64,000 nt of DNA from Actinomycetota bacterium (GCA_018896525.1 JAHIMR010000011.1:68-64067), one strand, 5' to 3'. Shown: positions 32,613 to 48,194, counted from the stretch's first letter. Numbers and translations: made by a program. The notes: generated from the sequence alone by a model not told the origin.

Positions 32613-33698
32613 GTGTTTGAGATGAGGTACTGTCGAGGTTGTGCTTTTCCTGTGGCGTACGGTCGTTTCCTGGAGTGGACCTCTGACGGCACAATCCTGG
32701 GAAAGGATTCATCCGGGACACGCCTGGTGTACCTGGACGTGGACGAGATACAGAACATCTTCACGGGCGTTTCCCGGTGGATGGGCATCCCCATCGACCG
32801 GATCATCTACAGAGCTGAGAAAGCGGTCGGTCGGCGCTTCATCGAAACCATGGTGCCGGGTTTCATCGCCAGGGCTCCTCGCGGCAAGTACGCGCGGCCG
32901 GAGTTCGGAATCAAGGCGACGGCACGATTCGTCTTCAACTACATGGCCGGGCTGGGGATGGGGCTGGGGGAGATCCTCGAGTACCACAGTACCGAATCGG
33001 CGAGGATAAGGATAACCGAAGCTCACTCGGTACCACTGGTGGCGGGCGACGGAGCCGGCGTCTTTGAGCACCTGGAGCGAGTCGGTGTCGATGCGACCTG
33101 GGAGCGGGTAAAGTCCGACGAGTACATCGTTACCCTCGAGAGAGTCAGTGACGAGCCTCCGGCGGAGGACCGCCTGGTCCTCGACGAAACCACGACCTAC
33201 CTGCCGGGTAACATCGAGTACCAGCGGTGCAAGCGTTGCAATGTCCCCCTGGTTGTGAGCAACACCGTCTATCTAAATCTCGAGCGGGGAATCCTCCGGA
33301 ACTCGACTACCGGGTTGCGAGTCGTGGCCCTTCCCGCCCAGAGCTTCTATGCTGTTTTCCGTGAGCTCTTTCGGGAGTTCGGCAAGGAGCTGCCCTCCGT
33401 GGTGGAGAGCCTGGAGCAGCGGTACACCAGGGAAAACACGCTGGTCAGCTACTACGTCGACGGTGTCGAAGGCGGCATCGAGCGCCTGTTTTCCGATTTT
33501 GCCTGGAAGGGAATCGGAAACCCCATCCAGGTAGGGAACACCGAGCGCGGCCTGGAGGTGGTTGTGGAAAACCCATTCCACAACGAGATGGTCGCCGGAA
33601 GGATAGTAGGCCTTTACGAGGCGCTGATCGAGGAAAATGTCGGGGCGACCTGGACCGAGCAGACCCCGGGCAGTCTCACGGTTACAATGCGGCAGTGA
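32613..33698 (+). CDS. Hypothetical protein with two CxxC + V4R-like repeats
   Basis: Halves begin CRGCAFP...W.SDGTI and CKRCNVP...L.RGIL. Each has a G.G turn (GMG/GIG) and a VAG helix. Confidence 0.75.
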   Translation: MFEMRYCRGCAFPVAYGRFLEWTSDGTILGKDSSGTRLVYLDVDEIQNIFTGVSRWMGIPIDRIIYRAEKAVGRRFIETMVPGFIARAPRGKYARPEFGIKATARFVFNYMAGLGMGLGEILEYHSTESARIRITEAHSVPLVAGDGAGVFEHLERVGVDATWERVKSDEYIVTLERVSDEPPAEDRLVLDETTTYLPGNIEYQRCKRCNVPLVVSNTVYLNLERGILRNSTTGLRVVALPAQSFYAVFRELFREFGKELPSVVESLEQRYTRENTLVSYYVDGVEGGIERLFSDFAWKGIGNPIQVGNTERGLEVVVENPFHNEMVAGRIVGLYEALIEENVGATWTEQTPGSLTVTMRQ

Positions 33699-33708
33699 GC
33701 TTGCCCCG

Positions 33709-33945
33709 TGACGCACTGGTGCCAGGCACCAGTGCGTCATTTTGTGGCTTTTGTTTATTTGTGAGGGAAGAGTCAGGCTCGCCCCTGGGCTGTTGCATAA
33801 CGGGGCTTGAGTTTGGGTGGGTGTTCCAACGGCACCAGCCCGGGGATGGCGTACCTTGCCTGACCTACGCTTGTGTGACAGGTAGGGGTTCAGGCCTTCT
33901 GGTCATAACGTATAATCTAGGCCGCCGCTTGAAGGCGCTGACCCC
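33709..33945 (+). repeat. Structured ~230-nt dispersed element, copy A
   Basis: Perfect 15-bp-arm palindrome at 33709-33739 followed by a T-rich tract. Colinear similarity to the reverse complement of 47500-47710. Confidence 0.8.
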
Positions 33946-33962
33946 ACTTGTTGGCCTTTTTC

Positions 33963-34775
33963 CTACTGGGCCGGCAGCGGCAGGGGGCTGACGTTCTCGG
34001 GCGCCTTGATGGTCAGCTTCTTGTTGTAGTCACTCAGCACGACCGTCGCTTCCCCTGTTACCATGTCGCCGGGCTTCGCGTACCCCAGCTTGATCAAATC
34101 GTCGGTGGCGCGGTACTCTACTACCTCCATTGAACTCTTGAAGTAATCGTTCTTCTTCTGGACATAGAAGTTGAACTCCGCTTTGAGTTCCTCCAGTTCG
34201 TCGACGGTCCTGACCTGATTGCCCTCCGGGTCCTTCAGAAGGTCGGTCACCCCGGGAAGCTTGACCAGCGCTTTCATGTCCGGGATACCGCGGACGTGAT
34301 AACAGTCCTCGCCATCGATCTTGGTATCGCTCAGCTTTTCGAGCTCCTTGAAGTACTGCAAATACTGCGACGTCGACAGGGCCTGAGTAACCGGTGGGGG
34401 CAACTGTACGGATTGTGGCGCTTCGTACCAGTTGCCGGCAATCTCCCAGTACTGCTTCTCCCCGACCTGGAGCATGGTTACCGGGACACCGGGGGCAAGT
34501 TCGGTCTCGATACGCATGTCCCCCGTCCGGTAGTCGATGTCCCCCTCCGATTTCTGTACGTAGTTCTGCTTTGCCACCTTCCCCTCCTCGATGGGCGCGG
34601 CCGGCAGCTTGATCGTCGACTCGACCTTGAAGTGCAACGTATTTATCTCCTTCGACGCGCGCATCGACTCCTTGAGAATCTCTTCGGCACCAGGGCCGCA
34701 ACCGGAAAACAGCACCGGCATCAGCACCAGCGGAACCAACAGTAGCAGGGCAAAACATTTCTTCAATTCGTTCAC
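33963..34775 (-). CDS. Lipoprotein (LppX/LprAFG-like)
   Basis: Signal peptide with lipobox FSGC. Contains KIDGEDCYHV and C-terminal SDYNKKLTIKAP. Confidence 0.75.
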   Translation of the reverse strand: MNELKKCFALLLLVPLVLMPVLFSGCGPGAEEILKESMRASKEINTLHFKVESTIKLPAAPIEEGKVAKQNYVQKSEGDIDYRTGDMRIETELAPGVPVTMLQVGEKQYWEIAGNWYEAPQSVQLPPPVTQALSTSQYLQYFKELEKLSDTKIDGEDCYHVRGIPDMKALVKLPGVTDLLKDPEGNQVRTVDELEELKAEFNFYVQKKNDYFKSSMEVVEYRATDDLIKLGYAKPGDMVTGEATVVLSDYNKKLTIKAPENVSPLPLPAQ

Positions 34776-34964
34776 CTCTCATCGGTCGGGATTACACTCC
34801 TCCGGATGCGCCTGGCGCCATCCATAGTAATTATAACGGGGACACGCCACCTTAGATACCCGTTTCAACAGGTCTAACACACGCCTTTGTCGTAAAATAC
34901 TTCAGGCGGCTATTCATAAGGCCTCCAATCAAGGTAGACGGGATACGTAACAGGCTGGTTCAAT

Positions 34965-36827
34965 ATGGACGGGTATGTCGGCAAGCTACTGAATATAAAC
35001 CTGAACGACGGGAGCGGTAAGGAGTTCACTGTCCCCGAAGAGATCCTGCAGAAGTACATCGGGGGGAAAGGGCTTGGCGCGTGGCTCCTCTTCAAGGGGC
35101 TCGAGCCGTACGTTGACCCGCTTGACCCCGAAAACGTGCTCCTCCTGATGACCGGACCGCTGACCGGTCTTTCAATACCGGCGATGAATCACCTGTCCAT
35201 CTGCACAAAGTCTCCTTTGACCGGCACACTGGTGAACGCTTCGATTGGAGGCGATTTCGCGGTAAAACTGAAGTCCTGCGGGTACGACGGAATCATACTG
35301 CGGGGGTGCTCCCCCCGCCCCGTTCTCATCGACATCACCGAGAGCCGTTGGAAGATACGGGACGCGAGCAAGCTCTGGGGTACCAACGTGGTTCAGGCGC
35401 AGGAGTTACTCGAGAGTAGCGTGGCAAGCATCCTCTGCATAGGGCCCGCCGGTGAAAACCTGGTCCGCTACGCCACCATCGTATCCGGGGAACACACCGC
35501 CCAGAGGGGCGGCACCGGAGCCGTTATGGGGTCCAAGCAGGTCAAGGCAATAAGGGTCGGTGGGTCTTTCGATACTTCCGTATTCGATCGCGAGCGGCTG
35601 AAGGGTCCCGTACGTTCCATCAAGGACAAGCTCAAAGTTACCGGTTCATACCCGAAGTACGGCACCGCCGGGAACATCGCCGGGTCCAACGAGAAAGGGG
35701 TGTTGCCCACCAGGAACTTCTCCGCCGGGTCCTTCGACCACTACATGAAGATATCCGGAGACGCGCTGCGCTCGCAGATCAGGCGAAAAGCGTTCAACTG
35801 CCCCGGCTGCCCGGTCGATTGCACAAGCGAGACGAAGATCGCGACAAAGAGCGGATCGCTCCGGGTAAAGGGGCCATCTTACCAACCTCTTGTCATGCTG
35901 GGCAGCAATCTTCTAATCGGTGACCTCGACGTGATAGTCCGGAACAACTATGCGTGCTACCTCCTTGGGTTGGACCCGATCAGCACCGGCGGAACGATAG
36001 CGCTGGCGATGGAACTCTCAGAGAAAGGCAGGATGGACCTCCCGCTCAGGTTCGGAAGCGCCCGGGAGATCGGTCCCGTTCTGCCCTTAATCGCCAACCG
36101 CAAGGGACCCGGCAACGAGCTCGCCGACGGGGCCGCCCGCCTGGTGTTGAAGTACGGGTACAGCGACCAATGCATGACGGTGAAGGGCATGGAACTGCCC
36201 GGGTACGACCCCAGGGGCTGCTGGGGGCAGGGACTGGCGTTTGCCACCTATCCCGCCGGTGGAAGCCACATCGGCTCCATGATGGCCGCCCCGGAGATAC
36301 AGGGCAGGCCTGTCCGGATCCCCGGGGGGAAGTCGGCGGGGAGAGTTCGCCTGACTGTTTTCGCCCAGAACATGTTCAACTCAATCGACTGCCTGGTCGG
36401 CTGTTTTCGCGCCTCCTACTGCCTGGCAGCCCCCTCGGAATGGATGCGCGGCCTCCCCTCCTGGCTGACCGGATTCTTCGCAGGCAGGACCCCGTCGATA
36501 GCCGCCTCCTTCATCGACCTGACGGATTACTACAATGCGGTTTCGTTCGTGACCGGCATCCGGTACAAAAGAAGCGCGTTCCTCCGCGTGGGTGAACGTA
36601 CATTCAATCTCGAGCGGTTGTTCAACCTGCGGGAAGGCCTCACCAGTAAGGATGACAGCCTGCCCCTACGCTTCATCGGCGAGCCTTTCCAGGAAGGTGA
36701 AATCAGTGGCAAGGTCGTACCGCTCACCAAGATGCTCCTCAAGTATTACCGCTTGAGGGGATGGAACGAGGTCGGCATTCCCACCGAGCAACTCCTGAGA
36801 AAGCTGGCGATCGAAGAGCGGCCTTAG
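34965..36827 (+). CDS. Aldehyde:ferredoxin oxidoreductase family protein (divergent)
   Basis: KSPLTG, IGPAGEN, RGGTGAVMGSK, CPGCPVDC, GYDPRG, ERLFNLREG...DDSLPLRF and YY.LRGW..G.P. Confidence 0.9.
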   Translation: MDGYVGKLLNINLNDGSGKEFTVPEEILQKYIGGKGLGAWLLFKGLEPYVDPLDPENVLLLMTGPLTGLSIPAMNHLSICTKSPLTGTLVNASIGGDFAVKLKSCGYDGIILRGCSPRPVLIDITESRWKIRDASKLWGTNVVQAQELLESSVASILCIGPAGENLVRYATIVSGEHTAQRGGTGAVMGSKQVKAIRVGGSFDTSVFDRERLKGPVRSIKDKLKVTGSYPKYGTAGNIAGSNEKGVLPTRNFSAGSFDHYMKISGDALRSQIRRKAFNCPGCPVDCTSETKIATKSGSLRVKGPSYQPLVMLGSNLLIGDLDVIVRNNYACYLLGLDPISTGGTIALAMELSEKGRMDLPLRFGSAREIGPVLPLIANRKGPGNELADGAARLVLKYGYSDQCMTVKGMELPGYDPRGCWGQGLAFATYPAGGSHIGSMMAAPEIQGRPVRIPGGKSAGRVRLTVFAQNMFNSIDCLVGCFRASYCLAAPSEWMRGLPSWLTGFFAGRTPSIAASFIDLTDYYNAVSFVTGIRYKRSAFLRVGERTFNLERLFNLREGLTSKDDSLPLRFIGEPFQEGEISGKVVPLTKMLLKYYRLRGWNEVGIPTEQLLRKLAIEERP

Positions 36828-36848
36828 CCGTACCTCCTCTCCAGGTAC

Positions 36849-36914
36849 GCACGTTTGGGGCCAGGCCCCATTGTTGCGTTTTGCACGTTTGGGGCCAGGC
36901 CCCTTGTTGCATTA
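36849..36914 (+). repeat. Two tandem 34-bp palindromic repeats upstream of the RAYT
   Basis: GCACGTTTGGGGCCAGGCCCC(A)TTGTTGC twice. Hairpins at 36857-36869 and 36891-36903. Confidence 0.9.
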
Positions 36915-36935
36915 TGCTTGTATTGCTTGTAGAAT
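36907..36935 (+). promoter_or_regulatory. Putative leaderless promoter of the RAYT
   Basis: TTGCAT-17 nt-TAGAAT with the ATG 6 nt downstream. No RBS. Confidence 0.55.
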
Positions 36936-36941
36936 GGGTGC

Positions 36942-37664
36942 ATGAGTCGAAAGCCAAGAGTTCAGTTCCCGGGCGCTCTATACCATGTAATGTCCCGGGG
37001 AACCTTGAAACAGAAGATCTTCCTTGAAAACGATGACCGTCTCAGCTTTTTTGGAACGTTATTCGGAGTTATCTCCCGTTACGAATGGTCCTGTTACACA
37101 TACTGCCTAATGGACAACCATTACCACCTGCTGGTCGAGACACATCAAGCGAATCTCTCTGAGGGGATGCACAAACTCAACAGCGATTACTGCAACCGAT
37201 TCAACTCGAAGTACGGTGGTGTAGGCCATGTACTGCAGGGGCGTTTCTATTCATCGCTCATCGAGAACGAAGCGCACCTGATGGAAACTATCAGGTACAC
37301 CGCCCTGAACCCGGTAAGTGGCGGACTGGTGCGTAAACCGGGGCAGTGGAGATGGAGCAGTTACCGGGCGATAAGCGGCCTCGGCCCCGTTCCTGACTTC
37401 CTCGATGTCGAGTACACCCTCGGCCTCTTTTCTGATAACAATGAGACGGCACGAAAGGCTTACCTCCATTTCGTTGCGGATGGCCTGCTCAGAGACCAGG
37501 CAAAGCGAACTACGCTTCAGGAGATTTTTCGGGGTGCGACAGACAGGCATCAGAGAAATAATGCCATACACGTCGCCTACTTTGAACACGACTACACAAT
37601 GACCGAGTTAGCCACCTATCTAAAGCTGAACCGTACGACCGTGGGAAGGGTACTCGGGAGTTAG
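36942..37664 (+). CDS. REP-associated tyrosine transposase (Y1/HUH) with C-terminal HTH
   Basis: YHVMSRG, YCLMDNHYHLL (HUH), GHVLQGRFYS, RY..LNPV, WRWSSY and C-terminal TMTELATYLKLNRTTVGR. Confidence 0.92.
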   Translation: MSRKPRVQFPGALYHVMSRGTLKQKIFLENDDRLSFFGTLFGVISRYEWSCYTYCLMDNHYHLLVETHQANLSEGMHKLNSDYCNRFNSKYGGVGHVLQGRFYSSLIENEAHLMETIRYTALNPVSGGLVRKPGQWRWSSYRAISGLGPVPDFLDVEYTLGLFSDNNETARKAYLHFVADGLLRDQAKRTTLQEIFRGATDRHQRNNAIHVAYFEHDYTMTELATYLKLNRTTVGRVLGS

Positions 37665-37739
37665 CGTTTTGCACGGTAGGGGCCAGGCCCCTTGGGTGCG
37701 TTTTGCACGGTAGGGGCCAGGCCCCTTGGGTGCGTTTTA
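37664..37739 (+). repeat. Two tandem 34-bp palindromic repeats downstream of the RAYT
   Basis: GCGTTTTGCACGGTAGGGGCCAGGCCCCTTGGGT at 37664 and 37698, plus a partial copy overlapping the uppS stop. Confidence 0.9.
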
Positions 37740-38453
37740 GGCGAGGTTGCCGTATGTTCTTATTCTGTGGTTGTACTCTTCGATTGCCTCCCGCAGATGC
37801 TCCCCTCGGAAGTCGGGCCAGACCACAGGCGTCACATACAGTTCAGAATAGGCTATCTCCCACAGGAGGAAGTTGCTCACTCGCATCTCTCCGGCCGTCC
37901 GTATCAGCAAGTCATAGTCGGGCAGATCCGGGGCATACAGGTGATTGCTTATCGTCTTCTCGCTTATCGAGCCGGGCTTCATCTTCCCCTCGGCCACCTT
38001 CAGTGCAATGCTCCGCATGGCATCCACCAGTTCCGCCCTCCCACCGTAGTTGAAGGCCACGTTCAGCTTCAGGCCGGTGTTGTTGCGCGTCAGTTCCACC
38101 GATTCGTCCATCTTTCTCATGAGCGAGCGCGGGACGCGCTTGCGGCGCCCCAGGAAACGTATCCTGACATTATTCTCATGGAACTCCGCCACCCGCCTGT
38201 CCAGCATGTCCCGGTTGAAGCTCATCAGGAACTTCACCTCGTCCACCGGACGCTTCCAGTTCTCAGTCGAGAACGCGAACAGGGTCAGTGCCTCCAGCCC
38301 CATCTCCACGGAAGCCAGCACGGTCGATGTCACCGCCTTCTCGCCCTCCCGATGGCCCTCTATACGCGGCAACCCTCTCGACGTTGCCCATCGCCCGTTT
38401 CCATCCATAATAATGGCAACCCTATCCGGCACATTCAAGGACCCCTTCGACAT
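37737..38453 (-). CDS. uppS: Isoprenyl transferase (undecaprenyl diphosphate synthase)
   Basis: AIIMDGNGRWA, FSTENWKRP, NYGGRAE and IRTAGEMRVSNFLLWE. Confidence 0.95.
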   Translation of the reverse strand: MSKGSLNVPDRVAIIMDGNGRWATSRGLPRIEGHREGEKAVTSTVLASVEMGLEALTLFAFSTENWKRPVDEVKFLMSFNRDMLDRRVAEFHENNVRIRFLGRRKRVPRSLMRKMDESVELTRNNTGLKLNVAFNYGGRAELVDAMRSIALKVAEGKMKPGSISEKTISNHLYAPDLPDYDLLIRTAGEMRVSNFLLWEIAYSELYVTPVVWPDFRGEHLREAIEEYNHRIRTYGNLA

Positions 38454-38457
38454 CTCA

Positions 38458-39273
38458 TCATCCTCCCTTAGCTCTCCCGCCCCCACCGCCGGGCATCTCC
38501 CTCATCACCCGGCGTGACTTGAATTCCCTCTCCATCCAGTGCTCCAGGACCCTGTCCATCAGCATCCCCAGCTCACGTTGTGTCGCAAGCGCCGGCGGCT
38601 CCTCCGGCCACTCTCCGAAACCATGGAGCGACATCCAGGAAAGAAGACCCGCCGATGGGGCTCTGACGGTTATCAGCCTTCCGACCTCCCGGTACCGCCC
38701 CCCCTTACAAGAATCGCACACCAGGCCCCCCAGGTGAAGTGAAAATGACGCGTCCCCGCCTCCCGGAGCACCGCCACAATTAGCGCACGAATCGACCCGG
38801 AGGTCGTAGCCGGCGGCCGCCATTACCTTGAACCCGAAGAAAGAGGTGATAAAAAGCGCGCGCACCGGAAACTCCTTGAGAAGCTCGAGCCCCCGTAGCA
38901 GCAGGTCGAACAGTTCCGGGTGCGGTTCGTGTTCCTGGGTAACGCCGTCAACCATCTCCACCATGGCAGACGCGTGGAAGAAAAGGTCCAGGTCCTCCCT
39001 TACCTCGCGAAACGATGTTTCTATCTCCACCTGCTTGACAGTGTCCATGCTTCTCCCGACATGGAGCATCATTCTCGCCATCGTTAACGGCTCCAGCCGG
39101 GCTCCAAACCTGCTGGTCGTCTTCCGTACCCCCTTGGCCACCGCCGACCGCTTACCGTGCTCCCGGGTGAGCACCCTCAGTATCTTGTCGGATTCGCCCA
39201 GCTTGTAGGAACGCAATATGATTCCCAGGTCGCTGTACTCCCGTTCGCCGCGCCTCTTCCCACCACCGTGGAC
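38458..39273 (-). CDS. recO: DNA repair protein RecO
   Basis: LGESDKI..VLTREHGK..AVAKGVRK..SRFGARLEP and CANC...CDSC. Start uncertain. Confidence 0.92.
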   Translation of the reverse strand, partial: VHGGGKRRGEREYSDLGIILRSYKLGESDKILRVLTREHGKRSAVAKGVRKTTSRFGARLEPLTMARMMLHVGRSMDTVKQVEIETSFREVREDLDLFFHASAMVEMVDGVTQEHEPHPELFDLLLRGLELLKEFPVRALFITSFFGFKVMAAAGYDLRVDSCANCGGAPGGGDASFSLHLGGLVCDSCKGGRYREVGRLITVRAPSAGLLSWMSLHGFGEWPEEPPALATQRELGMLMDRVLEHWMEREFKSRRVMREMPGGGGGRAKGG

Positions 39274-39367
39274 ACCTTCACGACGAGGCACGGGTGAACT
39301 CCTCCACAATCTCGGGGCCTTCGCCGGTCAGCCGCGTTTGGTGTGTATCCTCGGTCATTCCCGCCTC

Positions 39368-40714
39368 CTACATAAGCAGCGTTCCGATTCCAAGGTAGAT
39401 GGCAAGGCTCAGCACGTCCATAATCGTCCCCAACAGTGGTCCGGAAACCGCCCCGGGATCCCGGTTCAACGCTCTAAATATTATCGGCAGCGCGCATCCC
39501 ACCAGCGACGCCGCGATTACGGTAAGGGCAAGCGAGAGCCCGACCACCACGCCGACGGATGCTCCGAGATCCAACAGGAAACTCAACGCGGCGACAAGCC
39601 CACCGGTCAACAACCCCACCAGGACTCCCCAGATGACCTCACCAATGACCGCCTTTGCCGCCGTTCTCTGGAGCGGCAACCCGGAGGCCAGCCAGCGCCC
39701 AACCACCGTCGAGGATTGCACCGCGATGTTGCCGCCCATGATAACAAGCAGCGGTATAAAGAAAACGAGCACCATGAACTTCGAGAACACGGGCGAGTAC
39801 GTCTTGAGGATGCCGCCCACCAGCAGCATCTCTATGGCCACCGTGAGCACGAACCACGTAACGCGCCGTCCCAGGCCCGCGAACAGGCCTCCGGAAGGCT
39901 CTTCCTCCAAGCCGGTCGCCCCCGCGAACCGCATTATGTCCTCTTCGACCTCGTCGCCTATCACGTCCATGACGTCGTCAACCGTGACGATGCCCAGCAT
40001 GCGCCCAATATCGTCGGTTACCGGTACCGCCAGGAGGTCATACTTGCTGATGACCTCCGCCACTTCCTCCTGGTCGGTGTCGGGGGGCACCGTGATCACC
40101 TCGGGCCTGATCATCTCGCTGACGCACCTGCCTGGTGGTGACAGTATCAGCTCTCGCAAAGAAAGCACGCCTCCAAGCCGACCCTCACCCGAAGTGACGT
40201 ATACGTAGTAGATTGTTTCGACCTCCGGTGAAACATCCCGCAGGAGCCGTATCACCTCCTCTGCCGTCGCCTCTGGCGACACGGATATGTACTCGGGGGT
40301 CATCAAGCCGCCCGCGGTATCATCGCTGTAGGTTAAAAGCCGCTCGAGTTCTTCCGCCTCCTCACGCCCGAACAGCCTCAGCACTGTTTCACGACGGGAC
40401 TCGGGGATATCACCCAGCAGGTCGACCGCCTCGTCAACCGGCATGCTCTCCAGCAGGCCGCGTAGCTCACCCGCTCCCAATCGCTGGGCAACCTCTACCT
40501 GGTGCGCTTCGTCCATCTCGAACATGGCGCGCGCGGCCGCGCGCGGCTCCATCTCCAGGAGGACCTCCACCTCGCAGGTGATCTTCAGACCGGAGAGCAC
40601 CTCGGCGGTGTCCGCCGAGTGAAGATCGGCGACCGTTCTGACCGCCTGCCGTACATCGCCGCGGTCAAGCATGTCGCGAACCGTTTCCAGGATTACCTTG
40701 TTATGCCGCTCCAT
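39368..40714 (-). CDS. mgtE: Magnesium transporter MgtE
   Basis: TAGGLMTPEY, CBS pair, GIVTVDD, MGGN and GPLLGTIMD. Confidence 0.93.
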   Translation of the reverse strand: MERHNKVILETVRDMLDRGDVRQAVRTVADLHSADTAEVLSGLKITCEVEVLLEMEPRAAARAMFEMDEAHQVEVAQRLGAGELRGLLESMPVDEAVDLLGDIPESRRETVLRLFGREEAEELERLLTYSDDTAGGLMTPEYISVSPEATAEEVIRLLRDVSPEVETIYYVYVTSGEGRLGGVLSLRELILSPPGRCVSEMIRPEVITVPPDTDQEEVAEVISKYDLLAVPVTDDIGRMLGIVTVDDVMDVIGDEVEEDIMRFAGATGLEEEPSGGLFAGLGRRVTWFVLTVAIEMLLVGGILKTYSPVFSKFMVLVFFIPLLVIMGGNIAVQSSTVVGRWLASGLPLQRTAAKAVIGEVIWGVLVGLLTGGLVAALSFLLDLGASVGVVVGLSLALTVIAASLVGCALPIIFRALNRDPGAVSGPLLGTIMDVLSLAIYLGIGTLLM

Positions 40715-40725
40715 TCACTACACCA

Positions 40726-41625
40726 TCACTCGTACTCGAGCCTTCTAATGAACTCCGGGTTCTTGGACCAGTTCTTCTCCACTTTCACCCTGAGCATCAG
40801 GAACACCTTGCTACCGACTATCGGCTCTATCTCCTGCCTGGCCCTGGTGCCGATCTCCTTTATCAAGCGGCCGCCCTTGCCTATTACGATGCCCTTCTGC
40901 GACTCGCGCTCCACGTATATTACCGCTTCGATATCGACAATCCTCCCGTCCTCCCTGGGCCTTATTTCGTCCACTGTCACGGCAACGCTGTGGGGGACCT
41001 CGTCCCTTGTGAGCTCCAGCGCCTTCTCCCTTATCAGCTCCCCTATCAGGACCTTCTCGGGCTGATCGCTCACCGTCTCGGTGGGAAAGTACCGCGGGCC
41101 CTCCGGCAGATACCCGGCAAGTATCTCCATTAACCGCTTGACGTTGGCGCCGCACTTCGATGAAACCGGGACCACCGCCACGAACGGAAACAGATGTCGC
41201 GCTACCTCCACCTGTGAATCGACCTTGCCCTCGTCAAGCAGGTCCGTCTTGTTCACCACTCCCACAACCGGCGTTTCCACGCTCCCCAGCTCGCCGGCGA
41301 TAAACACGTCGCCCCGGCCAATGGTGGTCGCCCCGTCGAGCACGAACACGATAACGTCCACGTCCTTCATGGTCGAGCGGACCATGGCGTTCATCTTCTC
41401 CCCCAGCGCCTCCCGCGGCTTATGGAAACCGGGCGTGTCGACAAAGATGAGCTGCGCCTCAGGCGTCGTGACCACCGCGCGAATCCTGTTCCTGGTTGTC
41501 TGGGGCCTCTCCGAGGTTATGGCTAGCTTTCTGCCGACGAGGCTGTTGAGCAGCGTGGACTTGCCTACGTTGGGCCGACCGATTATCCCGATGAATCCGG
41601 ACAGGTGCCCCTCTTCTACATCCAA
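40726..41625 (-). CDS. era: GTPase Era
   Basis: GRPNVGKS, PQTTR, DTPG, NKTD and the KH motif VIGKGG. Confidence 0.96.
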   Translation of the reverse strand: MDVEEGHLSGFIGIIGRPNVGKSTLLNSLVGRKLAITSERPQTTRNRIRAVVTTPEAQLIFVDTPGFHKPREALGEKMNAMVRSTMKDVDVIVFVLDGATTIGRGDVFIAGELGSVETPVVGVVNKTDLLDEGKVDSQVEVARHLFPFVAVVPVSSKCGANVKRLMEILAGYLPEGPRYFPTETVSDQPEKVLIGELIREKALELTRDEVPHSVAVTVDEIRPREDGRIVDIEAVIYVERESQKGIVIGKGGRLIKEIGTRARQEIEPIVGSKVFLMLRVKVEKNWSKNPEFIRRLEYE

Positions 41626-41677
41626 ATCAATCAGCCCGCCCCTCGTGTAGTGAATCGAACGTTACTCGGGTTGCCAC

Positions 41678-42844
41678 TCAAGATCCCGCGGTGAACCGGT
41701 GTATACCGATGTTCAGCAGCAGTCCGACACAAAAGAAGCTAATAATAAGGGAGCTACCCCCGTAGCTTATGAACGGTAACGTAATCCCGGTGACCGGCAT
41801 TATCCCAATGGTCATCCCCACGTTCACTATCATCTGGAAGATAAACATCACTATGATGCCCACCGCAACCATTGTACCGAACGAATCACGCGCTGTTAAC
41901 GCTATCTTGAACGCCCTCCATATCAGGATAGCGAAAAGCGCCAGCAGGAAGATCGCCCCCAGGAAACCCAGCTCCTCGCCTACCACCGAGAAGATGAAAT
42001 CGGTGTGATGGGCCGGTATGAACTTGAGGTTGGTCTGAGTCCCGTGGAAGAGACCTTTCCCCACCAGTTGGCCGGAGCCGATGGCGATCTTTGACTGCAT
42101 GAGGTTGTATCCTGCTTGCATCGGGTCCATGTCGGGCTTTATGAACACCAGGAGCCTGTTGAGCTGGTAGGTCTTGAGAAGCCCCAACTGTATAGTCGCG
42201 GCGATCACCGCCAGCGTCCCCGCACCCAGCGCCACCATCTGCCTGGCGCGCGCTCCTCCCACCAACAGCATTCCGACCAGTATCACGAAGATCGACAGCG
42301 TTATCCCCAGGTCCGGCTCTATGAAGATCAACACCATCGGGAGCCCGGCAATCCCCAGCGCCCTCAGGAACTCCGTGTTGGACCCAATCTCCATCCGTCT
42401 GTCCGCCATGAAAGTCGCCAGGGTCAGGATGACCGCCAGCTTGGCCAGTTCCGACGGCTGGAAATCAAAGAAGCCCAGTGATATCCACCGGTGGGCTCCG
42501 CTCACCGCCGGGAACAGAAAAACGATAAGAAGCAGGAAGAGTGTTACTACGTAGATTATCTTTGAGTAAGGCATGATCTTGCGATAATCAAAGCTGGCGC
42601 CGAGAGCCATCACCACCAGCGCGAGCACCACGAACATCAACTGGCGCTTCAGGTAGTACGTAGAGGGAACATCCGCGCGCGTCGCGCTGTATATCATCAA
42701 CGTTCCGAACGCGGCAAGCGCCAGCGCGCAGAGGAGAAGCGGCTTGTCCAGGGCGCGCGGTGGAAAACGCTTGAGCACCTTCTCCCCGGTCTTTTCCCGG
42801 ACCATGCCCGGCGAGAAATCCGTGGCTCCCTTACGATGCATCAT
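41678..42844 (-). CDS. rodA: Rod shape-determining protein RodA
   Basis: QPSELAK, EPDLG, HTDFIFSVVGEELG and PVTGITLPFISYGGSS. Confidence 0.93.
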   Translation of the reverse strand: MMHRKGATDFSPGMVREKTGEKVLKRFPPRALDKPLLLCALALAAFGTLMIYSATRADVPSTYYLKRQLMFVVLALVVMALGASFDYRKIMPYSKIIYVVTLFLLLIVFLFPAVSGAHRWISLGFFDFQPSELAKLAVILTLATFMADRRMEIGSNTEFLRALGIAGLPMVLIFIEPDLGITLSIFVILVGMLLVGGARARQMVALGAGTLAVIAATIQLGLLKTYQLNRLLVFIKPDMDPMQAGYNLMQSKIAIGSGQLVGKGLFHGTQTNLKFIPAHHTDFIFSVVGEELGFLGAIFLLALFAILIWRAFKIALTARDSFGTMVAVGIIVMFIFQMIVNVGMTIGIMPVTGITLPFISYGGSSLIISFFCVGLLLNIGIHRFTAGS

Positions 42845-42847
42845 GAC

Positions 42848-44806
42848 TTAGTCACCTACACTAGGCTGTATCTCACCAGCCGGTGGCAGGTGGAAGAGCC
42901 CCTCCAGGATACGGCGGGCCGCCGGGGCCGCCGTCTCTCCCCCGTGACCGCCCTGCTCGATAACCACGGCAACCACGTACTGAGGATCGTTTGCCGGCGC
43001 GTAGCATACGAACCACGACGCGGGCTGCTTCCCCACGACCTCCGCGGTCCCGGTCTTGCCCGCCACCGGTATCTGCGCCAGGGGGAAACCCTCGAACGTC
43101 TTCGAGGCGGTACCCTTGCCCTTTACGACCCCCTGTAGCGCCTCGTTGATCTGGGCAAATATCTGGACATCAATCTCCAACTCAGCCACGGTTTCGATCT
43201 TGGCGGTGATTGACACCTCACCGTCACTGTCCTCGAGGTCTTTCATCACGTGGGGCTTGACGAACTTCCCCCCGTTGGCGATCCCCGCGAACACGTAAGC
43301 CATCTGGAGAGGGGTCGCCAGCAGGTCGCCCTGCCCGATAGCCATATTGACGGTGTCTCCCGGATACCAGACCTGGTACTCGGGATTGTCCCTGTTAAAC
43401 TCCCTCTTCCACTCGGGCGAGGGAACCCTGCCGTCCATCTCGCTGGTCAGGTCTATTCCGGTATGCATTCCAAGCCGAAAATCCCGGGCATACTCCCATA
43501 GCGGACGCCCCTCCTCTTTCAACTGCCGCTGGTAGAACGTATACCCGAGTTCGTAGAAGACTATGTCGCATGATTGCACTATCCCGTTAAAAAGGTTGAT
43601 GCGTCCGTGGGTGCTCCAGCAGTACTTCGGGTACTCTTCGAACGGGCCCTTGGTGAACACGTTCTTGCATTCAAACGGCGAGTTCATACTGTACGTCGCT
43701 TCCTGAATCGCGCCAATCGCGGTGACCGCCTTGAACGTGGAGGCAGGCGGCAGTTCGCTCATTATGGCGCGATTGTTCAAGGGGTACATATTCTTGGGAT
43801 TGTTCAGTTCCTTCCAGGCTTTCTCACTGATACCCCCCACGAACTCGTTGAGGTTGAACGTGGGATAACTGGCCATGGCGATTATCTCTCCGTTCCTGAG
43901 GTCCATCACCACCGCCGAGGCCCCGGTCGCCTCATACTCTCTAGCGGTCTCCGGATGGTAGCGGTTCCTGGCCAGGTCAACCTGCGCCTTTAGCGTGGCC
44001 TCTACCAGAGCCTGTATTTCCTGGTCGATGGTCATGCGGAGATTCAGCCCCGAACGCGGCTCCTTGCGTGATAGTTCCCGTATCGAGTTCCCCGACGCGT
44101 CAACCTCCAGCCGGTACTTCCCAACCTCGCCACGGAGTTCCTCGTCGTAGGTACTCTCCAGCCCGGAGATGCCGATCTCGTCACCGGCCACGTACCTCTC
44201 TCCCTTTTTCTCCTCGAGCATTTCCGGGGATATCTCGCCAAGGTAGCCGATTACGTGCGCGGCCAGTTCTTCGTAGGGGTACTCTCGTATCGGCCGGATG
44301 CCGGCAATAACCCCGGGAAACTCACGCTGGTGCTCCCTGACGTACGTTACGACGTCCTCACCCACATCGCTCTTGATGAGCACCACCCGCCTGTTAGGGG
44401 CCTGCGACTGCTCTATCCTGTACCGTATCTCCTTCTCTCCCATCCCCAGCAACCTGGAGAGCCGTTCGATGACCTTCTCATCCTTGCCGATCTCGGCCGG
44501 CACTACCGATATCGTAAGCGCGTTCCTGTTCTTCACCAGGACCGTGCCGTTGCGGTCGAGGATTCGGCCCCTCGGAGACTCGAGGGACATCTCCCGGATA
44601 CGGTTCCCTTCCGCCTTCTCGCAATACTCATCGCCGGAGACTATCTGCATGAACCAGAGCCGGGCAAACAGGATGACAAAGGCGGCGACAATCAGAATGC
44701 CAAGGATTGTCAGGCGCCGCTGCAACTTCTCCTGGACCGCGTCGGGGCGGTACTGTGTGGTCTCATTAGGATTAACTCTAATCCCTATTTTTCTCAGCAG
44801 TCTCAT
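42848..44806 (-). CDS. mrdA: Penicillin-binding protein 2
   Basis: PRGRILDRNG, STFK (SxxK), SCD and KTGT motifs. Lies in the mreBCD-rodA operon. Confidence 0.93.
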   Translation of the reverse strand: MRLLRKIGIRVNPNETTQYRPDAVQEKLQRRLTILGILIVAAFVILFARLWFMQIVSGDEYCEKAEGNRIREMSLESPRGRILDRNGTVLVKNRNALTISVVPAEIGKDEKVIERLSRLLGMGEKEIRYRIEQSQAPNRRVVLIKSDVGEDVVTYVREHQREFPGVIAGIRPIREYPYEELAAHVIGYLGEISPEMLEEKKGERYVAGDEIGISGLESTYDEELRGEVGKYRLEVDASGNSIRELSRKEPRSGLNLRMTIDQEIQALVEATLKAQVDLARNRYHPETAREYEATGASAVVMDLRNGEIIAMASYPTFNLNEFVGGISEKAWKELNNPKNMYPLNNRAIMSELPPASTFKAVTAIGAIQEATYSMNSPFECKNVFTKGPFEEYPKYCWSTHGRINLFNGIVQSCDIVFYELGYTFYQRQLKEEGRPLWEYARDFRLGMHTGIDLTSEMDGRVPSPEWKREFNRDNPEYQVWYPGDTVNMAIGQGDLLATPLQMAYVFAGIANGGKFVKPHVMKDLEDSDGEVSITAKIETVAELEIDVQIFAQINEALQGVVKGKGTASKTFEGFPLAQIPVAGKTGTAEVVGKQPASWFVCYAPANDPQYVVAVVIEQGGHGGETAAPAARRILEGLFHLPPAGEIQPSVGD

Positions 44807-44833
44807 CTCACCTCACCGGCTTTTCAACTTGGT

Positions 44834-45358
44834 TTACTCTCCACCGGACCTCAAGAGCGCTAGCGAATCACCCTGGCCGGGGAAACTGAACCTCCCCATA
44901 AGAGGATACACCACGAGGACTGCGAGCACGTCATATATAGCCGACGCCAGGATGACGTTTACCTGGAACGGAGGAAGCTTTTCCTGCCCCAGTATGATCA
45001 GCATCACTTGATGCATTACCGGATCCGCCACGCCGGCCAGAAACACCAGTATCACCGGCAGCAGTATCGAGTAGGTAACGAAAAAACCCTTGAGCGACCC
45101 GGCCAGGTAAGCGGTCACCGTCTTGGTCAGCGCACCCATTCCCATCACCAGTGGGCTCACCAGGTCCTGCAGCATCCCGCCGCAGAATCCGGCAACCGCG
45201 CCCTGGATAGGTCCGTCCTGAATCGCCACCACCACCGCCACCACCAGCAGGAGGTCCGGTTGAACACCCAAGAGCTTGAACTGTGGCATCACCGCCAACT
45301 GCAACAGAAAAGCCAGTGCCAATGCGCCGGCCACGAAGACCTGGCGTTTCCGGCTCAC
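44834..45358 (-). CDS. mreD: Rod shape-determining protein MreD
   Basis: Hydrophobic protein with PDLLL and G..QD. Positioned after mreC. Confidence 0.88.
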   Translation of the reverse strand: MSRKRQVFVAGALALAFLLQLAVMPQFKLLGVQPDLLLVVAVVVAIQDGPIQGAVAGFCGGMLQDLVSPLVMGMGALTKTVTAYLAGSLKGFFVTYSILLPVILVFLAGVADPVMHQVMLIILGQEKLPPFQVNVILASAIYDVLAVLVVYPLMGRFSFPGQGDSLALLRSGGE

Positions 45359-46215
45359 TGTGCCTCCTTCAGGATTACCGACTCAGGCTCAGGCGTGATT
45401 ATCACCAGCACCTTGTCGAGTTTCGAGAACTCGACGAACGGCTCGACCTCGACCAGGAGGGTAAGCCCTTTCTCACGCTTCTCAATCTCGCATATGGTCC
45501 CTATCGGTATATCCGGCGGGCATGTCCCTCCAAGCCCGCTGGTCTCAATAACGTCTCCCACCTTCATGTCCGCTTCGTCCGTCATAGGGACGAATCTTAT
45601 CGTGCTCCGGTTCCTGCCCTCCACCACTCCCGTCTCCCTGGAGCGCTGGTCCCGGGCGCCGACTGCTGAGCGGGAGTCGGTGATAAGCTGGACGACCGAT
45701 GAACGCGAGCCGACCGAGATTATCCTGCCCACCAGGAACCCCTCCCGGGTAACGACCGACATGTACTTCTTTACGCCGCTGGAAGACCCCGCGTTGACTA
45801 TCATCAGCCTCTGCCAGTTATCAGGGGATTGGCCGATGATGTCAGCCCCGACGTTCTTCATCTCCGGGTTTTTCTCGGACCAGTTCAAAAGCTCCTTGAG
45901 GTCCGCGACTTCCGCCTCTAGCTCTTTGGCTCCTATCTGCTTTCTCTTGAGGTCCGCGACTTCCCTGCGTAACTCCGCGTTCTCCCGGGAAAGAGACGGC
46001 AAGTGAAACAGGTTGATGAACCCGTCCTTTATCGGCCTGAGGATCTTTGCGAAACCGGAGCTTATCGGGGACACCAGGTCCAGGAAAATATCCTGCGTCT
46101 TATGCAGTGGGCCCTGATCGCTCTCCCTCACGTATAACGTTACGACCACAATGCATACGATTATAATCAGTATGAGGACCATGCGGCTTCTGTTGGCTCT
46201 GGGAACGGATGGCAT
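45355..46215 (-). CDS. mreC: Rod shape-determining protein MreC
   Basis: N-terminal TM, coiled coil (ENAELR), LVGRI and TSGLGG..P..IPIG. Confidence 0.92.
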   Translation of the reverse strand: MPSVPRANRSRMVLILIIIVCIVVVTLYVRESDQGPLHKTQDIFLDLVSPISSGFAKILRPIKDGFINLFHLPSLSRENAELRREVADLKRKQIGAKELEAEVADLKELLNWSEKNPEMKNVGADIIGQSPDNWQRLMIVNAGSSSGVKKYMSVVTREGFLVGRIISVGSRSSVVQLITDSRSAVGARDQRSRETGVVEGRNRSTIRFVPMTDEADMKVGDVIETSGLGGTCPPDIPIGTICEIEKREKGLTLLVEVEPFVEFSKLDKVLVIITPEPESVILKEAQ

Positions 46216-46237
46216 AACTTTAAGGATAGTTTTCGTA

Positions 46238-47284
46238 CTAACCCGCGGACGAGATTAACACCTTCTTCATGATATCGAATTCTTCCAGGCACTTGCCTGA
46301 ACCCATCGCCACACACAGGAGCGGGTCCTTGGCGATATGTACCGGCATGCCGGTCTCGTTCCGTATCCTCTCCTCCAGACCACGAAGGAGCGCCCCACCC
46401 CCGGCAAGGATGATTCCTTCATCCATGAGATCACTGGCAAGCTCAGGCGGAGTCCTGTCCAGGGCGTCCTTGACCGTCTGGACCACCTGGCATACCGGGT
46501 CATCGATGGCTACCCGTATCTCTTCGGCGGTAACGACCACGGTCTTGGGGAGTCCCGACGCGAGGTCTCTTCCCTTTATCTCGTCATCGTACTCATCTTC
46601 TCCGATCTTGAACGCCGACCCTATGCTCAACTTCAGGTTCTCCGCGGTCCTCTCCCCTATCATCAACTGGTAATCCTTCTTTATGCAACTGATAATCGCC
46701 TCGTCCATCTCGTCACCGCCCACCCGTATGGACTGGCTGGTGACGATGCCACCGAGTGATATTACCGCGACCTCGGTCGTGCCTCCTCCAATGTCGACGA
46801 CCATGTTTCCGATTGGTTCGTGTATCGGTAACCCGGCCCCGATCGCGGCCGCCATCGGCTCCTCGACTATGAACGCCGCGCGTGCCCCCGCCTGGATCGT
46901 CGCCTCCTCGACCGCCCTCTGCTCCACCCCGGTTATTCCGCTGGGAACCGCCACCACTACCCGTGGGCGGGCAAGGGATCTGCGCTGGTGCACCTTCTGA
47001 ATGAAGTAACGCAGCATCTTCTCGGTCACATCGAAGTCGGCGATGACCCCGTCCTTGAGCGGCCTTATCGCCACGATATGCGCCGGGGTGCGCCCCACCA
47101 TCCTCTTTGCCTCTTCGCCCACCGCAATAATAGCGTTGGTGATGCTGTTGACCGCGACCACCGACGGCTCGTTGAGCACGATTCCCTCGCCCTTGACATA
47201 GACAAGTGTGTTGGCGGTCCCCAGGTCAACCGCCATGTCCTTGCCAAACGCTCCGGTGCCAAACAATCTTGCGAAAAAGGACAC
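46238..47284 (-). CDS. mreB: Actin-like protein MreB
   Basis: [25 protein letters not shown] and GGGALL. Confidence 0.96.
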
Positions 47285-47463
47285 TTTCCTTCTCTCTCTG
47301 GTCGTTCCCTGCTACTGTTACCGACATACGGCTACTGCCAACTCAAGACAACAATTATGCACAAACCAATGGGCAAAGTCACCCATTATGCTAACACATA
47401 ATTACTTATTCAACACCAGCATCAATACTTTACAAAAAACGAACCGCATTCCCCCACCCAAAC

Positions 47464-47755
47464 GGGGTCTGGCCCAGGCTGTTGTCGTTCGTTTCTCCCC
47501 TCAAGCGGATGTACGTAATGCAACAGCGGGCCTGACCCCCGGCCTATACGCGACAACGCCAGACAAACCTCGCCACCCCCGGGATGTTGCCGTTGCAACA
47601 TCCACCCAAGCCGACGTCTGTTATGCAACATCCCCAGGGCGTGACCCCTCCATCCCTAACAAACAACAACCACAAAATGCGCCAATGGTGCCAGGCACCA
47701 CTGGCGCATTCCGATGCCAGGGGAAACATTATGCAACAACCCGGGGCGTGCCCTC
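47464..47755 (-). repeat. Structured dispersed element, copy B, with extra RAYT-type repeat units
   Basis: 17-bp-arm palindrome at 47676-47710. Homologous to 33709-33945. 47516-47539 matches the reverse complement of 36891-36914 at 21/24. Confidence 0.8.
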
Positions 47756-47762
47756 AGGTGGT

Positions 47763-48194
47763 TCAGCCGCATCCATCGCTGAAGAACAGCGCGATCTCTC
47801 TTTCGGCGTTCTCCAGCGTGTCGGAGCCGTGTATGAGGTTCTTGGTGACGTTGGTGGCGAAATCACCCCGGATGGTGCCGGGCGCCGCCGTCAGGGGGTC
47901 GGTGTTGCCCATGAGATAGCGCAGGCCCCCCACGCAACCCTCGCCGGATATCACCGCTACGACCGCCGGCCCACTGGTTATGTACCTGATGAGCTTCTCG
48001 TAGAAAGGCTTCCCTTTGTGCTCGGCGTAATGGACCTCGGCCAGTTCCAGGTCGATGTTGATGGTCTTCATGCACTCTATGGTGTACCCCTTGCGCTCTA
48101 TCCTGGACAGGATGTCTCCCACCAGGCGACGGTCCACGCCGTCCGGCTTGACTATCAAGAGGGTCCGCTCGTGGTCAATCCGCTCAGAATCCAT
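47763..48194 (-). CDS. ndk: Nucleoside diphosphate kinase
   Basis: KPDGV, HY.EHKGKPF, PGTIRGDF and NLIHGSD. Confidence 0.96.
   Translation of the reverse strand: MDSERIDHERTLLIVKPDGVDRRLVGDILSRIERKGYTIECMKTINIDLELAEVHYAEHKGKPFYEKLIRYITSGPAVVAVISGEGCVGGLRYLMGNTDPLTAAPGTIRGDFATNVTKNLIHGSDTLENAEREIALFFSDGCG

Follow-up and report, generated by a model that had tools for sequence, protein, structure and literature searches.

The bacterial interspersed mosaic elements (BIMEs) of enterobacteria combine repetitive extragenic palindromic sequences (REPs), in pairs of alternating orientation, with other motifs in a preferred order, and insertion sequences of the IS200/IS605 family have unlike hairpins at their two ends, leave no target duplication, and show a strand bias. 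REPs lie downstream of genes and between convergent genes, and in their super-families one end of the REP bears GTAG or CGTC as an unpaired tag (Di Nocera et al. 2013, PMC3733652, which also mentions mosaic intergenic repeat clusters such as those of Neisseria). In P. fluorescens SBW25, three groups of REPINs, hairpins built from two REPs, occur with three REP-associated tyrosine transposases (RAYTs) (PMC3116915); the REPIN hairpin has been described as the replicative unit, capable of excision and forming clusters by insertion beside existing REPINs (Bertels and Rainey 2011, PMC3116915). RAYT copies have been put at 1.3 to 1.8 per replicon (Bertels et al. 2017, PMC5581495). Here, we analyze two look-alike noncoding loci, copy A and copy B, and a RAYT-like gene located between them, in a 64,000-nucleotide stretch of DNA (the window; GCA_018896525.1, JAHIMR010000011.1:68-64067) from an uncultured Actinomycetota lineage.

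The original prediction described these loci as two copies of an element linked to the RAYT, either a nonautonomous composite or a structured RNA or terminator module, and proposed an undescribed system. We find instead that the element is a mosaic of three parts: H, a palindrome of ~33 nt; a linker rich in T; and M, a module of ~190 nt that comprises the long hairpins P1 and X. Modules are found singly, as tandem repeats, and in a favored order; they accumulate in spacers behind genes, and module content changes from species to species and from strain to strain. The family is a lineage-specific variant of REP/BIME-type mosaics and no new kind of system. Both loci are probably genus-specific, nonautonomous hairpin repeats like REPs, REPINs, and BIMEs, mobilized, as we infer, via RAYT.

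Results

The source assembly (G000) comprises 2.92 Mb in 140 contigs at 59.8% GC, and the window maps to its contig C97 (window 47526-47641 corresponds to C97:47593-47708). BLASTN with window 33700-33950 as the query placed pieces of the element at 131 loci of this genome, which replaces the earlier view of two copies. Query coverage splits into H (the palindrome, ~35 nt here), a unit of 72 nt at query 81-152 that is P1 and also yields stand-alone matches, and a further ~95 nt. Iterated nhmmer searches with the long module gathered 129 M matches, 33 of them full length, 35 covering model positions 1 to ~120, and 21 holding only the 3' part; the remainder are short pieces, often in tandem, and about two thirds of all M matches are fragments (~90 partial versus 33 full copies). 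The TGGTGCC-type core of H is found at 166 genome sites, 14 inside called genes, and stems are 14 to 20 bp long. Palindrome, linker, and M stand together at 7 loci, copy A among them. These BLASTN and nhmmer copies, with the REP classes described below, bear out the prediction of a composite, multicopy, noncoding, hairpin-rich element related to RAYT repeats and longer and more asymmetric than a REPIN.

Aligned with MAFFT, window 33690-33990 on the plus strand and window 47440-47790 on the minus strand share 74% mean column identity, and all of the shared blocks listed originally are present in the two loci, in opposite orientations. The predicted colinearity holds up to model position ~120; beyond this point, copy A continues with the X hairpin, and copy B continues with a piece like the REP at the RAYT flank and a different tail. 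That piece (47516-47539) is identical to the flank at 36891-36914 in 21/24 positions, exactly as claimed, and its junction of REP core and leader-like sequence is of a type found at 5 further loci. Sub-motifs of M also resemble the REP-plus-leader junction of the window RAYT. As single strands, both loci fold better than their shuffles (copy A, z of -4.13, 0/200 shuffles as good; copy B, z of -4.53, 0/100 shuffles as good).

The copy A composite (259 to 261 nt) is gained or lost as one block, without target duplication. Contigs from three runs belonging to three studies (X8, 6489 nt; X9, 6981 nt; X13, 365 nt) carry the site empty and join 33701 to 33963, with 261 nt skipped and six other letters between, in flanks that are 96 to 98% identical (26/702 and 16/738 letters differ); run X2 carries the filled site. 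In G001, a same-genus sister species, the site is also empty, and the two convergent stop codons are 5 nt apart. The presence/absence polymorphism that the original prediction had looked for is therefore found, and the empty site extends the bounds of copy A from the predicted 33709-33945 to 33704-33962. Compared with G001, G000 has its stop codon three codons sooner in the open reading frame (ORF) at 32613-33698, at the insertion's left boundary (33680-33703 versus ~1465-1495 of locus L067). Since a near-identical empty-site strain keeps the G000 stop, the stop codon was not supplied by the element.

No target-site duplication was seen at the copy A junctions in the empty-site contigs or G001, which bears on whether M could be a MITE (a miniature transposable element with inverted repeats) derived from an insertion sequence of the classical DDE type, with inverted repeats at the termini and target-site duplication. 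Such an origin would suit the high copy number and the GGGGTC...GACCCC motifs near both M ends, but the one cleanly resolved empty site lacks a duplication, and it is the internal GGGGTC, not the left one, that covaries with the right arm. Moreover, the gained or lost block reaches past M to include H, M adjoins no RAYT or TnpB gene, and no longer copy is among the nhmmer matches, although widely spaced end pairs were not searched for explicitly. We rejected the DDE-type MITE on the absent target duplication and regard this origin as extremely unlikely.

Other loci show turnover of single modules. The ndk-mreB spacer of G001, 192 nt long, holds two X-type units in place of the copy B modules, and at two more loci compared between G000 and G001 the X unit is common to both, and the remaining modules either differ or have given way to REPs of other classes. 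A metagenome contig ~96% identical in its flank shows a 133-nt module gain and a 43-nt loss relative to G000. Both resolved insertion points follow TTG, two cases being too few to define a target motif.

The window RAYT matches PF01797 (E of 1.4e-8; 35.3 bits versus a cut-off of 23) and scores 68.2 bits against the NCBIfam RAYT equivalog NF047646, for which the curated cut-off is 80. The genome holds at least six such paralogs, all diverged (56 to 66% identity to the window's). Four are complete (contigs C117, C97, C16, and C44), and two are cut at contig ends (C107 and C71). The complete genes encode ~240 aa, are 63 to 66% identical to the window's, and all contain HYH and RY..LNPV motifs; each has a palindrome of its own, present as 2+2 copies in the flanks, and each contig-end gene has one REP on its assembled side. 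A conserved 5' leader is shared by the RAYT genes and found only upstream of them; it holds a promoter-like TTGCAT-17 nt-TAGAAT.

Which REP belongs to which paralog changes the reading of H. The hairpin had been taken for the REP of the window RAYT, but the flanks of this gene carry instead a REP with a GGGGCCAGGCCCC core (80 sites genome-wide), and no H-type palindrome was found in its 5' or 3' flank. H-class palindromes flank other paralogs, with 2+2 copies at C44 and one each at C71 and C107. The palindrome of copy A combines C44-class arms with a C71-class core, and that of copy B is near-identical to the REP beside the C107 paralog. Thus, the outer arms of the two hairpins do differ with pairing kept, as originally observed, but two REP classes tied to different transposase paralogs explain this, not RNA covariation. 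H ends in GCGTCA, whose bases are paired in the dispersed copies and only partly paired in the C44 flank copies. The long module flanks none of the six genes, so that the proposed RAYT dependence is putative.

Several further palindrome arrays were observed. Three H-type palindromes lie head to tail with 34-nt spacing at C16:37983-38090, and the REP of the window RAYT is also often paired, with copies 33 to 34 nt apart. Another repeat, separate from these and present in 128 copies, has GTAG immediately 5' of a GCCGGCA...TGCCGGC hairpin in the style of a classical GTAG-tagged REP; it precedes about one third of full M copies (for example, left of M on L010, L014, and L020) and was not found beside any of the six RAYT genes.

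P1 and X each consist of two inverted repeats around a spacer, fold into a single long hairpin, and occur as units, as is typical of REPINs. Among 122 nhmmer-aligned hits, 87% of cells in the P1 helix (17 pairs) are paired versus 31 to 41% when slid; the figures for the X helix (13 pairs) are 94% versus 39 to 47%, and those for the 7-pair T helix, which involves the X loop, are 69% versus 20 to 41%. An independent MAFFT alignment of 28 copies (26/33 full copies and 2 from G001) has 87.3% of 1019 cells paired versus 31 to 46% when slid; over the two alignments, the paired share is 94 to 96% for X and 69 to 73% for T. Its covariation score of 0.128 versus 0.064 was reached by 0/500 shuffles, and its 10 pairs changed on both sides were reached by 6/500. 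Double changes fall at pairs 26-72 and 27-71 of P1 and at 4 pairs of X, providing the covarying helices that had been anticipated; they mark subfamilies and so represent few independent events. The middle segment and the loops are conserved though unpaired.

Compensatory change thus keeps P1 and X paired, and base composition at the pairs points to DNA-level hairpins over a one-strand RNA. The helices are almost purely Watson-Crick, and G·U is balanced with A·C (62 versus 58 in P1 and 4 versus 2 in X), as would be expected of hairpins formed by DNA on either strand. Used as a strand test, the balanced wobble counts are uninformative as to which strand, if any, acts as RNA.

We also considered whether M encodes structured small RNAs that act in trans, such as one that guides or partners a transposon-derived nuclease. 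Conserved helices with double changes, a possible pseudoknot, conserved unpaired blocks, and 18 TnpB-type (PF07282) matches in the genome would fit this idea. Against it, in addition to the balanced wobble and the many fragments, the scan of 33600-34050, which takes in copy A, found no promoter-like site, and the two such sites close to copy B are upstream of mreB and not within the repeat modules. Rfam 15 gave nothing relevant: the whole window at gathering thresholds yields two tRNAs only, and at E values up to 10 the best matches of both loci (E of 0.78 to 9) are to microRNA or long noncoding RNA models and are noise. The predicted lack of an Rfam match was therefore upheld for the window and both loci, while the structured-RNA alternative offered with it drew no positive support. 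M is within 3 kb of 2/18 TnpB matches (1.8 to 2.8 kb) and never adjacent; a TnpB omega-RNA was rejected on this count (0/18 adjacent), and a small-RNA role of any such kind appears very unlikely. The TnpB-type matches, several of them at contig ends (e.g., C37:33305-33505 and C80:9871-10071), are unlinked to the M repeats.

Genomic placement was scored on gene calls from a crude in-house caller, which gave 2171 genes at 82% coverage. All 68 M copies lie outside called genes; relative to the orientation of the element, the neighbors are convergent for 26, both antisense for 26, both sense for 9, and divergent for 5, with 2 at a contig edge. Convergent spacers hold 26/66 M copies, compared with 240/1694 spacers genome-wide, and divergent spacers hold 5/66. 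The M 3' end faces a gene 3' end in 52/66 cases, with the 5' side unbiased (35 versus 31), and between co-directional genes the count is 26 versus 9. From model position 168 to the stop codon, the median gap is 19 nt in 25 full copies and 16 nt in X-only copies. A REP palindrome (stem of ≥9 bp, ≤130 nt away) is present to the left of 22/33 full M copies and to the right of 0/33. Since M 3' ends sit at stops and palindromes lie only to the left, the usual order is gene stop, reverse complement of M, and REP.

Copy A fits this order, and copy B belongs to the 9 copies with both neighbors sense, which are exceptions to it. The original prediction noted that each hairpin follows a stop codon in the sense orientation, which is correct for both copies (10 nt past the stop at 33696-33698 for copy A and ~50 nt past the ndk [PF00334] stop at 47763-47765 for copy B). 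The association that is more consistent across the family, however, is that of the M 3' end with the stop of the convergent gene, as at copy A, where the stop of gene 33963-34775 (minus strand) directly adjoins the element. M orientation opposes the local GC skew in 46/68 copies, a bias no stronger than that for gene orientation, so that replication-strand and gene effects are inseparable.

Such placement raises the possibility that M is a selected cis-acting element of the 3' untranslated region, whose spread is secondary and whose reverse complement is transcribed as the tail of the upstream gene, where it would serve as a terminator, insulator, 3'-end stabilizer, or translation-coupled brake. 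The orientation of M toward gene ends, its short gap to the stop, and the position of the REP palindrome on the far side in 22/33 copies and never on the near side all agree with this, as do terminator-like sites: one at 33937-33955 is the copy A T hairpin, and the copy B palindrome also passes a simple scan, in which the number of sites is close to that expected from shuffles. The RepRanger paper also flags REPs ≤15 nt from an ORF end as possible translational controllers (PMC12306157). However, neither strand shows an excess of G·U over A·C, truncation or rearrangement has affected many copies, and the element is dispensable both in strains with 96 to 98% identical flanks and in the sister species. 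A Pfam scan of 25 genes (of 52) with M at the stop gave unrelated functions, and the idea of a regulon was dropped. We consider a selected 3'-end element doubtful.

M belongs to one genus and hardly appears in the rest of the family. In a DNA search of 40 relatives, it was present in 1/1 same-genus genome (G001) and 0/39 others, and a covariance model (R1) built for M and run on G000 and 16 family genomes gave 97 matches in G000, 47 in G001, 2 weak P1-like matches in G002, 1 X-like match in G009, and none in the other 13. The weak matches in these two other genera include L141 (G002:C52) 1501-1654 and L142 (G009:C66) 34-176. One is a P1-like hairpin with CTTTTGC/GCAAAAG where M has CTGTTGC/GCAACAG, and the other is an X-like hairpin, GGGGTCAGGC...CTGACCCC; both may be distant relatives. 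A pattern scan of genome contigs found 10 loci in one Actinomycetota metagenome-assembled genome (MAG), 10/10 of them profile confirmed, and 8 singletons without M. In metagenome contigs, M was present at 39/49 loci, all with flanks like those of G000 or near relatives. RAYT homologues occur in 32/41 genomes, G000 included, a distribution far wider than that of M. Features of both loci and of the window RAYT are collected in Table 1.

Table 1. Modules of copies A and B and REPs of the window RAYT, in window coordinates
Feature	Position	Strand	Description
Copy A, whole composite (H, linker, M)	33704..33962	+	One insertion/deletion block; bounds from empty site
H, REP-type palindrome	33708..33740	+	Core TGGTGCC-A-GGCACCA, 14-15 bp stem, then T-rich tract; from sequence and fold
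T-rich linker	33741..33779	+	Ends in GAGGGA-type purine run; conserved in the 7 loci spanning hairpin to module
P1 unit	33780..33851	+	72-nt long hairpin, CGCC-CCTGGGCTGTTGC ... GCAxCAGCCCGGGG-AT-GGCG; elsewhere also alone and in tandem
Unpaired conserved middle segment	33852..33884	+	Direct repeat CTTGyCTGAC / CTTGTGTGAC; from alignments of full-length copies (one with all 33, one with 26 of these and 2 from G001)
X unit	33885..33945	+	13-bp helix GGGGTyCAGGCCTT / AAGGCGCTGACCCC enclosing ~35-nt loop
T pairing	33920..33956	+	X-loop GGCCGCC with GTTGGCC 3' of X; pseudoknot-like or alternative terminal hairpin; then TTTTTC
RAYT REP, 5' side, two copies	36849..36915	+	Own REP of window RAYT, core GGGGCCAGGCCCC, running into conserved 5' leader
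RAYT-like Y1 transposase	36942..37664	+	One of at least six paralogs
RAYT REP, 3' side, two copies	37671..37736	+	Same GGGGCCAGGCCCC-core REP
Copy B, repeat-filled ndk-mreB spacer	47446..47762	-	From alignment to copy A
Copy B tail module	47451..47484	-	CAACAGCCTGGGCCAGACCCCGTTTGGGTGG; recurs right of several full copies
Copy B piece like window RAYT 5' flank	47516..47539	-	REP core + TGTTGCATTA
Copy B P1 unit	47571..47641	-	nhmmer match to model 1-120 (47526-47641); covariance-model match, 98 bits
Copy B second-class REP-type palindrome	47676..47710	-	GCGCCAGTGGTGCC-T-GGCACCATTGGCGC; terminator-like on minus strand
Copy B extra P1 5'-arm fragment	47727..47747	-	Upstream of palindrome; pairs with P1 3' arm in fold

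Discussion

We propose that these repeats would move through single-stranded DNA hairpins handled in trans by RAYT (HUH/Y1) paralogs, with H as the putative recognized REP and M as a co-mobilized or preferred neighbor, and that recombination between repeated motifs may add rearrangements. Hairpins between a stop codon and a REP with a T-run probably work as structures of the 3' end, in termination or in protection of the mRNA there, a role that would be a side effect and not the reason for the existence of the family.

Several observations weigh against mobilization by RAYT. P1 and X arms are absent from the flanks of all six RAYT genes, and no transposase could be matched to M. G001 gave no RAYT match to the window protein despite its 47 M-family matches in an assembly that is 82% complete and in 280 contigs; this reflects either an assembly gap or a lineage that keeps the repeats after loss of the transposase. 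The nearest paralog of copy A in the genome is only 85% identical to it, so that recent copy-and-paste is not established, and gain, precise loss, and allele exchange fit equally; nor is there a near-identical second copy among the listed contig pieces of run X2, which carries the filled site. Near-identical 8-nt motifs stand at both ends of the 133-nt indel, for which recombination or slippage is as good an explanation as transposition. The 3'-end orientation bias of M exceeds simple promoter avoidance and could reflect a selected function, and the caller underlying these placement counts missed the window RAYT itself.

A related but more specific alternative is that the composite of H, linker, P1, and X is a single transposable unit in the manner of IS200/IS605, moved in trans by RAYT paralogs. 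The REP palindrome would form one end and the pseudoknot-like X/T hairpin the other, with insertion into the few nucleotides separating a stop codon from the next feature. We judge this unlikely; if true, the composite would be a cargo-bearing, asymmetric relative of REPINs.

If the family does consist of REP/BIME-like repeats served by RAYT, this genus would be a compact natural case in which six diverged RAYT paralogs, all with palindrome classes of their own, exist alongside longer hairpin modules lacking any dedicated transposase. It would bear on two open questions: what the replicating unit of REP-type elements is, and whether these elements lie behind genes because they function there or because insertion there is tolerated. 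In practice the gain is modest: these repeats would account for a large part of the fragmented assembly and for many intergenic regions that look "structured" in these MAGs, and could serve as strain-level markers. The main texts of the two REP/RAYT surveys (PMC3733652 and PMC5581495) do not contain the word Actinobacteria; our literature search found no work on RAYT in Actinobacteria and none on such composites in Actinomycetota, although the supplementary tables of the surveys may list actinobacterial cases.

Comparison with known systems

The closest match is to REP/RAYT systems. H is a short, GC-rich palindrome, high in copy number and outside genes, whose classes flank RAYTs in 2+2 arrays; several paralogs each have their own REP class, like those of SBW25, and placement agrees with that surveyed by Di Nocera et al. 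2013. Unlike the described cases, this genome has at least six paralogs versus 1.3 to 1.8 per replicon, its RAYTs (~240 aa) have a C-terminal extension and fall below the NCBIfam cut-off, and the CGTC motif lies within the stem in the dispersed copies. P1 (72 nt) and X (~60 nt) resemble REPINs as clustered, spaced inverted-repeat hairpins with pairing kept. They differ from REPINs in that their arms are not REPs of any RAYT found here and in that two hairpins and a REP in fixed order form an asymmetric ~260-nt unit, with no symmetric doublet.

Like enterobacterial BIMEs and the Neisseria clusters, the family joins REPs to other motifs in a preferred order, in 3' spacers, with variable composition and tandem amplification. 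Unlike BIMEs, it has no REP pairs of alternating orientation, its non-REP modules are long structured hairpins, and the sequences are unrelated. Derivatives of IS200/IS605 elements share with it the different end hairpins, the lack of target duplication at the resolved site, and an orientation biased relative to GC skew (46/68); they differ in that no cognate insertion sequence with these ends was found and in that TnpB genes are not adjacent. Fixed module order and orientation, P1 and X modules without their own RAYT, and many RAYT paralogs are unusual, while each main trait, namely, the tie between REP and RAYT, the hairpins, the clustering, and the turnover in blocks, has been described for REPs and REPINs (PMC3116915, PMC3733652, PMC5581495, and PMC12306157).

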